This document shows positions 13,101 through 16,100 of a stretch of DNA of 45,692 bases, one piece after another. This stretch comes from a virus (lineage: Duplodnaviria > Heunggongvirae > Uroviricota > Caudoviricetes). The position numbers were made by a program. How positions within the stretch are numbered: position 1 is the stretch's first letter; every line of letters starts with the position of its first letter. Location: the IMG/VR virus record IMGVR_UViG_2651869695_000008; one strand, 5' to 3'.

Positions 13101-16100
13101 GATTATCCAGTTCGGATAGCTGCTGCTCCCCAAGCCACACAGGAGGCTCATTATCTCCGGCCATACGCGCATCATGTTCCTGCCATTGTTTCGCGTGTGC
13201 CCAGGCATCACTACCCGCAAAAATAATGACTTCTGTTCCTTTGTGTTTTATGCCGCGTGACTGCTGTTTTACGTTCGGTGCCAGTTTCATTTTTTACCTC
13301 TGAATCCGTTAATCATGGTTTTCATTTTCTGGATATTTCCCCACGCTTTTTCCCTGCTGATGGGCTTACTGCGGGGTGCGGCATATACCAGGGAAAAATC
13401 ACGCCGGAACTGATAAACAGGCATCACGCAGTCATAGCTATACCCCTCACGGCGGTAAGTGATGCGCCGTTCTGCCACGCCTTTAATCGTTACCGTGCCG
13501 CCGTATTTATCGCGGTAAATATCGCCGTTCATAAATTCAGGTCGAGCGGGGCCGCTGGCAATAAAGCCAGAATTTTTCATTTCCATATTATTTATTCCTC
13601 GACTTAACTCGACTTATTTGATAGCAGGGCACTATTTATTGCGTCATTGAGTTTTTCTGCTGATTCATCAATAAGTGACAACAGGCCATAAGCAATATTT
13701 GCATCTTCATTGTCATTTATGCAATCAAGCCACATATTTAATATTGCTTTTGCTGAATTATTTAAAGTTAATGAACTTTCTGCACATGCTAACAATTTAA
13801 AAAAGACTTCCCGTTCTGTATTCATTTAATCCCCCACCAGCTTACTTTCTTCCTCAATCAAAAAACTAGCGACACTTCCCGAAAGACGCGCCAGTAGGCT
13901 CGCCAGTGCGGATATATCAGCATCTGTAATTTTGTTCGGGTATACCTCAAGAAGGCGGCAAATAATTTCTGTCTGGTGCGCACGTTCAGCGGCTTCGTGT
14001 AATGTAATTTCCTGCATTAATGCACCTCTTTTAATTCATACACTGCTGAAATAATGACTTGTGATAAGCCATATTCTGATGATTCGCTTCTCACCGCAGC
14101 AATAGCCGTCTGAACATTAACAGCCTTCACATTCTGAGCGATACCAATTGTGTGGCCTATTGGGTTAACAGCTCGGGCAAATACACGGAAGGTTTTAAGC
14201 ATGACTCACTCCCTGGCGGATTTTTGCAGCGAATACAGCAACACAACCGGACGGGCAACGGCTACGCGCTTCGCGTTCCGTCCAGGCGGTTACGTGGATG
14301 ATTTGAGATTCTCCGGCACTCAGTGCCAGAAAACGCCACACAAAGGCCGTTTGTGTGTGTACAAGGTGTGGTATATGATTTACAGCAACCATAACGGCTC
14401 CTAGTTTACGTTGTTGGTTAGACGCCCCGTATGTGTTCCCAGCACTGCGGGGCGTTGCTCTTTGTATTTCAACAATCCTTTCGGTGTGTTTCATGTTATG
14501 AGCGCATGAAACACACGTCAAGGCTTTTTGTATTTCTTTTTTTGTGTATACTGAAACACACCGATGATTAGGAGTTTCAGAAATGGCAACGGCTAACAAA
14601 AACGCAAAATCACAACTGACAACTGTCAGAGTCCCACTAGATGTTATGCAAGGGATGGAATCCGTTAAGCTGGACGGTGAAAGCAATGCCGGATTTATCG
14701 TAACCGCCATGCGCGGAGAAATAGCCCGCCGCCAAGCAGAAGGCAGCGGAGAAAATCCCCTTGTGTCGTCACTGGATGCCCTGGCTAAGGTCGAACAAAT
14801 CGGCATCAAAGCAGCCGAGGAGATCGGGCAACTCGTCACCGTCGCGCGTGAAGAACTCCAGCGACGCAAGGTCAAAGAGCATGAATAGCCAATATCAGCG
14901 CCATAGTTTGAGGAACGCAGGCGCATTGCTTTACAGGACAGCACCATGAGCGACACAGAATCAACCAAAACACCATCACCAACTCGTAAGAGACGACGCA
15001 AAAATATAGCGCATGAACATGAATCAGAAAGATTCGCACCTTGTTCGTTTGCTCTTGAGAAATTCCTTAAAGAGCACAGGAAAAAGCTCTCGTTGCAAAC
15101 CTTGGAACGAACCAAATCTGACTGATCACATTGCCCACCAGCCGCAAATGTGGCATTGTTGGTGATGCTTTTGTTTTCCCTTGTTCCCACTGGCGACCCT
15201 TTTGCGGTCGCCTTTGTTTTGTCACTGAATGCGGTTACCAAAGTAAAACTCAGGCTGATATTCACGTATCAGCGTTTTTTCTTCTTCCTCCAGCTCACGC
15301 TTTTTGCGCTTACATGCCTGTAGCTCCCTCCCCTTCTCGCTGGCACTTATTTGATATTGCTCTTTACGGCGGGAAAAATCCTGTAATGCACCCCACGGGA
15401 TACCATAAGTCCCCGTTTTTCTGATACCTGGTATCACATTTCTGAATACCCAGTTACTGAAACGATGAGCAAATGTGCCAGGCGTCGTTGCTTTGCGGCT
15501 GCGGGCTATTAGTTTGTAGAAACCTGACTCAGAGATAATTCTCATATTCTGATTTCCTCCTGGGGTGTAAGTTAAATTTACTCCCTTTTCATCATCATCA
15601 AGCATCTGCAACGCCGTACGCGAATTGGTTAGTTCCAGCGCAGCACAAACATCTTTTGCAACAAACCACGGATCGCCGTTCAGATACACCACACGAACGT
15701 TCACACTATCAAAGCGCAGAACGACGAGATCACGAATATCGCAGAATTTTTTCACTGGACGAGCGTACCCCTTGCCCGTCACAGCAATATTTTTATTCAT
15801 CGCGTTTTTACCTTATAGACAAAAAACCCCTCGTGATGAGGGGCATTATTTACTGGTTATTGCTGTTTTGTTTTTCCAGGTTTCCATCCAGGATGCCACT
15901 CACCACGGATCCATGCCTGAACCTCTGAAAGTCGATACCCTGCAGCACGTTCACCGATCTTGATACGTCGCGGGAATTTACCTGCCTGCTCCATTTTCCA
16001 GCGTGTTGAGTTTGCCAGCGTGGTAAGTGCTATGCACTCTTTTTCACGAATGAACCGATCAATGTCCTTCATTGTGCGCAAATCGTTTTCATCAACAAGA

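Follow-up and report, generated by a model that had tools for sequence, protein, structure and literature searches.

Gram-negative phage-inducible chromosomal islands (PICIs) occur widely and move virulence and defence genes. In EcCICFT073, AlpA is an activator required for induction and transfer, and overexpressing it is by itself enough to induce excision and replication, with no helper; the published control logic of Gram-negative PICIs consists of this activator only, and the founding paper of 2018 by Fillol-Salom et al. called the global repressor of Gram-negative PICIs 'unclear' (PMC6092414). The helper-embedded configuration (HE-PICIs) was described by Tommasini, Mageeney and Williams in 2023; late transcription reading into such islands has been hypothesised, and C4/isrK-type immunity RNAs are reported from some of their Bro zones (PMC10111431). 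Pseudomonas AlpA is described as an antiterminator (PMC7969949, PMC9371919), and AlpA of PICIs might act likewise. Here we analyse the control region of a satellite of this kind in a Caudoviricetes sequence of 45,692 nucleotides (IMG/VR record IMGVR_UViG_2651869695_000008; "the window" denotes the whole of this stretch). We estimate a probability of about 0.6 that this region is the control centre of a Gram-negative PICI embedded in the portal gene of its helper, built around a ribbon-helix-helix (RHH) repressor and its operators, with an added RNA layer and with induction by read-through transcription. The parts are listed in Table 1, and all module assignments are computational.

The satellite interrupts the portal gene at about nt 814-826 of a CFT073 portal homolog, and both halves of that gene (17553-18312 and 6009-6667) are on the strand that carries the satellite genes. 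A portal gene split by a satellite on the same strand is the arrangement of an HE-PICI, and an integrase gene, alpA and a primase/replication module within an element of the ~10-15 kb class, without lysis or tail genes, are those of a Gram-negative PICI. The minus strand runs from int (16116-17357) through alpA and the Bro-N gene and then, beyond two plus-strand genes, from the Icd-like gene through three small open reading frames (ORFs), DUF4222, a D5-type primase (11536-13290), a single-stranded DNA-binding protein (SSB), capsid and decoration proteins, a helix-turn-helix (HTH) gene and TerS. An earlier note on the window had described a satellite written entirely on the minus strand except for a 101-aa putative DNA-binding protein and a 59-aa basic ORF (orf59), both transcribed divergently from the replication operon across a palindrome. 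The two ORFs are present and are the sole plus-strand genes of the satellite (the 101-aa gene is the only plus-strand satellite coding sequence annotated in a 99.9% identical RefSeq record), and the divergent layout, which is that of a genetic switch, is borne out. The 1.9-kb switch region is 99.9% identical to many complete E. coli genomes, 1422 of 5426 complete E. coli genomes contain relatives of it, and by this measure the window is E. coli DNA. For comparison we assembled ~100 loci drawn from genomes, viral contigs and assemblies (counts for orf59 are over 103 loci). The order int - alpA - variable zone - ylcI - divergent region - icd-like - DUF4222 - primase is conserved in every locus examined, and in all ~100 the ylcI-type gene, which corresponds to the 101-aa gene of the window, stands between alpA/int and the divergent icd-like - DUF4222 - primase operon.

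The 101-aa protein matches NCBIfam family NF041551 (YlcI/YnfO) over residues 9-50, scoring 63.3 bits where the cut-off is 30 (E 1.6e-17). Its AlphaFold2 (AF2) model, with a mean predicted local distance difference test score (pLDDT) of 80, has a strand followed by helices at residues 19-28, 35-54 and 59-100, that is, the N-terminal strand and two helices of an RHH domain; the best structural neighbours are RHH antitoxins, and some UniRef homologs are named 'Arc-like DNA binding domain' proteins. A PDB sequence search with the family profile gave no match to an RHH protein. Profile match and model together favour an RHH fold, and support the DNA-binding role that the earlier note had supposed. 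In Arc, the DNA-facing residues of the beta-strand are Q9, N11 and R13, to which residues 12, 14 and 16 of the 101-aa protein presumably correspond. R16 is invariant, and residues 12-15 fall into discrete variants. The family is small (74 representatives at 50% identity among 1.84 billion proteins) and comes in two forms, one of ~55-65 aa with the RHH domain only and one of ~100 aa with a C-terminal domain; EcCICFT073 has a homolog of 59 aa that consists of the RHH domain alone and lacks the C-terminal domain. Residues 55-100 are more conserved across specificity classes than the DNA-binding part, with L60, S62, S63, L64, L67, E71, I73 and G74 invariant. The only match of the PDB profile search was a weak one, of residues 45-86 to the helix-hairpin-helix domain of Hef (E 0.004; LxKVExIGxKxAxEI), where the AF2 model shows one long helix. 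The ratio of nonsynonymous to synonymous substitution rates (dN/dS) is 0.07-0.23 for the 101-aa gene and 0.15-0.32 for orf59, ratios by which purifying selection acts on both.

Upstream of the 101-aa gene, reading of the sequence bears out the inverted repeat that the earlier note had reported: 12 bp of perfect match, GTGTGTTTCATG at 14484-14495 and CATGAAACACAC at 14505-14516, around a 9-nt spacer. The TATACT element that it had taken for a -10 box is likewise in place. The 11-bp motif GGTGTGTTTCA occurs three times at no more than one mismatch in 45.7 kb, where 0.91 copies are expected, and all three copies (O_L, O_R and O3) lie within 80 bp. Because the pattern was derived from the window sequence itself, conservation is stronger evidence than this count. 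The stretch of the degenerate fourth site, O4, has 12 of 16 alignment columns invariant among loci of the window's specificity class, and at the same position (~-53) the other classes have a good copy of their own motif.

These sites are laid out around two promoters. P_icd, the predicted promoter of the Icd-like/replication operon, sits inside the palindrome and has a near-consensus -35 box. Read along the minus strand the order is -35, O_R, -10, O_L, and along the plus strand O4, TATACT, O3, AGGAG, ATG; an inverted pair of half-sites brackets the -10 box at each of the two back-to-back promoters, whose predicted start sites are ~73 bp apart. The -35 box of P_icd is kept as GTCAAG in nearly all loci, and its -10 box retains A2 and T6 in most of nine same-class sequences, the remaining spacer being variable; the EcCICFT073 counterpart is TTGACG-18-TATAGT, with 10 of 12 matches. 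Within the group of loci that share the window's recognition residues (E. coli, Xenorhabdus, Photorhabdus and Serratia), the half-sites, GTCAAG, a TATAMT core (positions 1-3 and 6) and the Shine-Dalgarno sequence are invariant, and the spacer within the palindrome varies. The position of the palindrome on the promoter of the replication operon and its behaviour in these comparisons fit an operator.

The evidence that ties these sites to the 101-aa protein is their co-variation with it. The sequence of the repeat tracks beta-strand residues 12 and 14, and residues 12-15 co-vary strongly with the motif over nine classes. Loci with the window's signature, L-T, have GTGTTTCA as their repeated motif, and loci with other signatures have a different motif repeated at the same positions: GTGTAAGAC with S-T, GTGATTCAG with Q-S, GTGA(G)ATATACA with M-T, a GGTGTA / ACACACC-type motif of their own with M-N, GTGTGTATTTA with L/V-N, GGTATTCA / GGGATTCA with Q-N, and GGTGTGGCCCAC with A-K, the signature of EcCICFT073. 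The sharing of repeated 7-mers is 0.78 between loci of the same signature and 0.09 between loci of different signatures.

Shared ancestry is not the whole explanation of this pattern, because several loci are mosaic, the classes are uncoupled from the rest of the satellite and the sites can be rearranged. In loci L014, L018 and L020 of the comparison set, icd is 92-100% identical to that of the window and the C-terminal coding part of the RHH gene mostly 80-95%, with the operators falling to 45-67% and the N-terminal coding part to 55-77% identity. L020 and L021, and likewise L014 and L015, share the RHH protein and operators with AlpA proteins only 13-35% identical, and L015 and L020 have AlpA proteins 76% identical and different operators. 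Operator class is uncoupled from primase type and from Int, which is just 22-25% identical among the L-T loci of the four genera that share the window's operators. Finally, EcCICFT073 and L007 have the two upstream sites in direct and not inverted orientation, which excludes a hairpin function for the repeats. A repressor that evolves with its operators, as one immunity cassette, would be expected to leave this pattern. Given the joint diversification of recognition strand and operators into at least nine classes, we propose that the protein also defines the immunity types of these satellites.

A second layer of control may lie at the start of the replication operon. The Icd-like gene overlaps the next ORF (14017-14202) by 8 nt, and identical RefSeq records name its product 'host cell division inhibitor Icd-like protein'. 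The protein also matches PHROG families annotated 'transcriptional repressor' (phrog_1743, E 2e-22; phrog_6196, E 2e-17), which differs from the cell-division inhibitor of the NCBI name. The parts of the switch are where the earlier note had placed them, but the stretch that it had treated as intergenic (14203-14400) actually holds this gene as well as a structured RNA element. On the minus strand, the stretch between the start codon of the icd-like gene and O_L includes a conserved hairpin and, after it, an invariant TCTAACCA. The leader of the minus-strand icd mRNA folds no more stably than shuffled sequences (z = -0.43), and the plus strand was therefore tested: its RNA from 14386 to 14472 folds at -33.6 kcal/mol (z = -4.5). 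For 18 diverse loci, RNAalifold gives -21.8 kcal/mol for the plus strand versus -7.0 for the minus strand, and the plus strand is the more stable in 18 of 18. Stem-loop 1 includes a stretch complementary to the AUG and Shine-Dalgarno sequence of the icd-like gene, and stem-loop 2 (14421-14457) with its U-rich tail forms a predicted intrinsic terminator. In the terminator hairpin 90% of cells are paired and four pairs show compensatory changes, with a covariation score of 0.181 versus 0.041 in shuffles (0/500). The non-Watson-Crick cells read on the minus strand are 13 A.C versus one G.U; on the plus strand the A.C cells become G.U pairs. With a covariance model each satellite has a single strong match, on the plus strand (14380-14469 in the window, 79 bits), and ~130 kb of prophage and chromosomal DNA has none.

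Upstream of this element, a TAnnnT hexamer (TATGAT, TATGCT, TATAAT, TAGACT or TACTAT) stands 35-36 nt before an invariant TGGTTAGA in all variants, and its position is kept despite differing Icd residues opposite it and an icd start codon shifted by 6 nt. A conserved, strand-specific structure that ends in a predicted intrinsic terminator is what a cis-antisense small RNA (sRNA) would present, and we consider the existence of a plus-strand antisense RNA of ~85 nt here somewhat more probable than its absence. Rfam searches returned no C4, isrK or other relevant family over 6500-17600 at E <= 1, and only chance eukaryotic matches over 14340-14500 at E <= 10. In some satellites the element is present in a second full copy (L014 3168-3258 and L084 1982-2071, both on the plus strand, 76-91 bits). 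As L084 contains a pair of orf59 paralogs as well, the module seems to have been duplicated.

Table 1. Parts of the predicted control region and neighbouring features, with positions in the window
Feature	Position	Strand	Basis or remark
Satellite (~10.9 kb)	~6668-17552		Inside portal gene of lambdoid prophage, co-oriented; RefSeq annotation and comparison with an intact portal gene
Icd-like gene, 65 aa, first gene of replication operon	14195-14392	-	NF033153, E 1.2e-17; AGGAG 5 nt upstream of ATG
Candidate antisense-RNA promoter, -10 box (TATGAT)	14374-14379	+	Suggested by conservation of position
Candidate cis-antisense sRNA, ~85 nt	~14386-14470	+	Two conserved hairpins
Putative operator half-site O_L (GGTGTGTTTCA)	14483-14493	+	Covers predicted P_icd start site; invariant block across four genera
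P_icd (Icd-like/replication operon promoter)	14493-14521	-	Predicted sigma-70 promoter, consensus scan: -35 TTGACG 14521-14516, 17-nt spacer, -10 TAACAT 14498-14493
Putative operator half-site O_R (CGTGTGTTTCA on - strand)	14507-14517	-	Occupies -35/-10 spacer of P_icd; motif scan and conservation
Putative degenerate half-site O4 (TTTGTATTTCT, 7/11 matches)	~14527-14537	+	At -35 position of P_ylcI
P_ylcI -10 box (TATACT)	14547-14552	+	Kept as TATACT, TATAAT, TATATT or TATAGT at -36 from ATG
Putative operator half-site O3 (GGTGTGTTTCA on - strand)	14552-14562	-	Abuts TATACT box, covers P_ylcI start site; motif scan and conservation
101-aa YlcI/YnfO-family protein, proposed autoregulated repressor	14583-14888	+	N-terminal RHH domain and conserved C-terminal helical domain
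59-aa basic protein (orf59), placed as co-transcribed with the repressor	14946-15125	+	phrog_21027
Predicted intrinsic terminator of ylcI-orf59 unit	15192-15222	+	GGCGACC-loop-GGTCGCC, then TTTGTTTTGT
Bro-N domain protein, 192 aa	15222-15800	-	Pfam PF02498, E 4.9e-20; PHROG anti-repressor families
Predicted intrinsic terminator directly after alpA	15826-15844	-	GCCCCTCATCACGAGGGGT, then TTTTTTG
AlpA-family regulator	15857-16114	-	Pfam PF05930, E 5.4e-14; starts 1 nt after int stop codon

In the mechanism that we propose, the 101-aa RHH protein would bind four copies of the 11-bp motif, O_L and O_R bracketing the -10 box of P_icd, and O4 and O3 that of the repressor's own promoter, keeping the replication operon off and limiting its own synthesis. 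The ~85-nt plus-strand RNA, fully complementary to the 5' untranslated region, Shine-Dalgarno sequence and start codon of the Icd-like gene, would block translation of the Icd-like protein, and could also make the operon polar, lowering its expression in the way that c4 RNA acts on icd in phage P1. Judging from published work on relatives, induction would need no helper protein to strip the repressor from its sites. Transcription from the int-alpA side would instead pass the alpA terminator, run through Bro-N and, antisense, across orf59-ylcI, and enter the replication operon; the antisense passage would silence repressor synthesis, and the read-through would bypass the repressor. Its source would be helper late transcription in the embedded configuration and AlpA-dependent transcription in general. 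The satellite is co-oriented with the helper late operon, inside the portal gene, and its int and alpA abut, and antiterminated helper late transcription could therefore enter it in cis. Neither reading of the sequence nor the scan found a good terminator on the minus strand between bro-N and icd, and on the alpA strand of EcCICFT073, from alpA to icd, there is no strong terminator, the scan giving weak hairpins only, all within coding sequence. Extended to the whole group, the proposal would be that the YlcI/YnfO RHH protein is the missing global repressor and immunity determinant of Gram-negative PICIs, including EcCICFT073, in at least nine classes, with a cis-antisense sRNA gating Icd-like translation, and that it is overridden by AlpA-driven or helper late read-through via transcriptional interference and not by an antirepressor; in this full form we put it forward tentatively, as a possibility.

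Other explanations of the same features have to be weighed against this one. The inverted repeat might merely be a hairpin (a terminator or an RNA/DNA structure), or a site for AlpA or the primase in the manner of iterons, and not the operator of the 101-aa protein, as a perfect 12-bp palindrome with a T-run some bases later would allow; however, the direct-repeat arrangement of the homologous sites in EcCICFT073 and L007, the recurrence of the motif as single copies at the other promoter, and the independence of motif class from AlpA, Int and primase type make this extremely improbable. A type II toxin-antitoxin system, in which the RHH protein would be an autoregulating antitoxin and orf59 the toxin, would account for the structural neighbours of the 101-aa protein and for a two-gene autoregulated operon with the RHH gene first. 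Yet 46 of 103 loci and all non-Escherichia loci lack orf59 and keep the RHH gene and the operators, orf59 has no Pfam, NCBIfam or PADLOC match, the two genes are non-overlapping and 57 nt apart, and the divergent replication promoter carries two of the four operator sites; we rejected this very improbable reading because the partnership with orf59 is not obligate. A further view, for which RHH copy-control repressors of the CopG kind provide a known precedent, is that the protein serves only copy-number or immunity control, damping the replication operon after induction and excluding satellites of the same class, with no on/off role. Regulation by the RHH protein of the primase operon and of its own gene, the sufficiency of AlpA for induction, and nine specificity classes flanked by near-identical DNA, as selection for heteroimmunity would produce, are all in keeping with it. 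It is hard to tell by computation from the explanation that we prefer, but a promoter with a near-consensus -35 and with operators flanking its -10 box should be tightly shut off in the integrated island, which is an off state, and we think this view unlikely.

The earlier note had itself suggested a master-repressor layout in which a protein encoded by the helper would derepress the island. In such a switch, like that of the Staphylococcus aureus pathogenicity islands (SaPIs), the RHH protein would be the sole lock, lifted by a specific helper protein or by the satellite's own Bro-N antirepressor. The divergent repressor/operon layout does resemble that of Stl/Rpr in Gram-positive PICIs (PMC6092414), the conserved C-terminal domain (55-100) would be expected of a surface for a common partner, and Bro, AntA/B and Rha genes are frequent between alpA and the ylcI-type gene in satellites (PMC13612085). 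The helper encodes a Rha-family regulator (21579-22139, minus strand; TIGR02681, E 4e-33), and its terminase genes lie downstream of it. A YlcI/YnfO paralog of the helper beside the terminase gene, where DLP12 has ylcI, was sought in the window and not found; only the Rha-family regulator is present. Against a lock of this kind, EcCICFT073 has the RHH domain only, with neither a C-terminal domain nor a Bro gene, and is induced by AlpA without a helper, many loci with the long form are without any Bro/Ant gene, and helper late transcription is a simpler input in the embedded configuration. Since EcCICFT073 carries the module and is induced by AlpA alone, a helper protein that titrates a master repressor is not required. 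The DNA-binding protein, the operator and the divergent geometry of the earlier suggestion are supported, but derepression by a helper protein is not, and we consider a SaPI-like lock improbable.

Several points weigh against the repressor, RNA and read-through scheme that we prefer. P_ylcI has no good -35 box, and that of the candidate sRNA promoter is poor. The centres of the half-sites are 24-25 bp apart, which is unusual for known RHH operators. Shared ancestry within classes affects the covariation argument, and the mosaic loci argue against ancestry alone. L-T and M-T loci differ conservatively at position 12 but have very different operators, so residues 12 and 14 by themselves do not make up the recognition code. 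Because overexpression of AlpA alone induces EcCICFT073, the repressor cannot be the only gatekeeper, and its part might be confined to the tuning of copy number or immunity. Read-through with transcriptional interference is a step that we purely infer.

The genes around the predicted switch vary more between loci. Homologs of orf59 occur in 57 of 103 loci (57 aa in EcCICFT073), with in-frame indels and the dN/dS given above, as in a real gene; they are confined to Escherichia and always named 'hypothetical', and from this distribution orf59 is dispensable for the module. It has no match in Pfam, NCBIfam or PADLOC, and its AF2 model, two helices at low confidence (pLDDT 67), is too weak for a fold search. 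A screen of eight small proteins with the PADLOC defence models matched none of the switch proteins, the only two matches being weak (E ~0.003-0.005) and both to the HTH gene at 8514-8897. The terminator that closes the ylcI-orf59 unit is one-directional, as its minus-strand version has no T-run, and L018 has a homologous terminator. A consensus scan of 14100-15900 gave 13 terminator-like hairpins versus 2.3 expected from shuffles, of which several, on both strands, fall within coding sequence (14725-14750 and 14337-14357, for instance, both on the minus strand).

A Bro-N protein and an AlpA-family gene do lie beyond the plus-strand pair, as the earlier note had it (PF02498 and PF05930). The Bro-N gene converges on the repressor unit and belongs to the variable 'Bro zone'; its role as a component of the switch did not hold up, since it is absent from most loci that bear the module, including EcCICFT073, L015, L016, L018 and L020, and no copy of the operator motif at <=1 mismatch occurs near it. 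No correlation was found between the long RHH form and the presence of a Bro/Ant gene. At the junction of int and alpA (TGA-T-ATG, 16112-16118) there is no room for a separate alpA promoter region, and EcCICFT073 has ~365 nt there. The HTH gene at 8514-8897 (minus strand, 127 aa, 33% identity to AlpA over 51 residues) is a second AlpA-like gene; situated in the late zone, immediately upstream of TerS, it recalls the second alpA copy of EcCIMP1.

The observations of the earlier note are thus confirmed and its interpretation is partly supported: a predicted repressor and operator are present, relief by the helper in the manner of SaPIs is not favoured, and Bro-N is peripheral. A conserved RHH repressor with matched operators, if true, would explain the silence of the island, why the Icd-like and replication genes stay off in the integrated state, and how related satellites could be heteroimmune. 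The specificity classes would then be a natural set of orthogonal repressor/operator pairs, and the antisense RNA would extend the c4-icd theme of P1 to satellites. A 2026 survey lists YlcI/YnfO merely as 'prophage-associated protein', and no functional study of YlcI/YnfO, DUF3950, Arc-like or RHH proteins in PICIs was found in the literature searched, subscription-only papers being outside its reach. Relative to that searchable literature, the prediction that the YlcI/YnfO RHH protein is the repressor that binds the operators of Gram-negative PICIs, the apparently co-evolving specificity classes and the candidate antisense RNA are new.

Among described systems, EcCICFT073 (NC_004431, 1377930-1388654) and the other Gram-negative PICIs are the closest. 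They share the order int, alpA, variable Bro zone, icd-like, DUF4222, primase, SSB, capsid and decoration, and EcCICFT073 also has the 59-aa YlcI/YnfO protein, the orf59 homolog and the same layout of promoters and repeats, in which the -10 box of its P_icd counterpart is flanked by two motif copies and TATACT is followed by a third. Like HE-PICIs, the satellite of the window is inside the portal gene of its helper and co-oriented with it (PMC10111431); unlike those HE-PICIs that have C4/isrK-type RNAs, it has none detectable with Rfam. The main difference is in the regulation, which as published for EcCICFT073 and HE-PICIs consists of the AlpA activator only, the opposite-strand RHH gene, the operators and the antisense RNA not being analysed in searchable papers.

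The Stl/Rpr repressors of SaPIs and Gram-positive PICIs are likewise divergent from the replication operon and would likewise hold the island silent. They are, however, cI-like helix-turn-helix proteins transcribed with int, whereas the protein described here is a predicted RHH protein encoded opposite to int, and derepression by a helper protein is not indicated here because an AlpA activator exists. YlcI (DLP12) and YnfO (Qin) of E. coli K-12 belong to the same NCBIfam N-terminal domain family, and YlcI is short and lies opposite to its neighbour nohD; identity is only 20%, and both are lambdoid prophage proteins encoded next to a terminase gene.

Immunity at the RNA level is known from the c4 RNA / icd / ant system of the phage P1 immI region and from the CI RNA of satellite P4. 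As with these, a small structured RNA would here block the ribosome-binding site of an icd or icd-like gene that heads an operon. The P1 and P4 RNAs are on the same strand as their targets and are processed from the operon leader, whereas the candidate here would be a cis-antisense transcript with its own promoter and terminator, and it has no Rfam C4 or isrK match. Arc and Mnt of the phage P22 immI region and CopG of plasmid pMV158 are RHH repressors. The YlcI/YnfO protein differs from them in having no detectable sequence similarity past the fold, in half-site centres 24-25 bp apart, in its extra conserved C-terminal domain and in its proposed target, a primase operon headed by an Icd-like gene and not an antirepressor gene. 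It resembles them in being a small predicted RHH protein whose modelled beta-strand has alternating DNA-facing residues (the Q9/N11/R13 pattern of Arc), in putative operators that overlap the -10 and -35 boxes of divergent promoters, and in the autoregulation and the control of immunity or replication in a mobile element that are proposed here.

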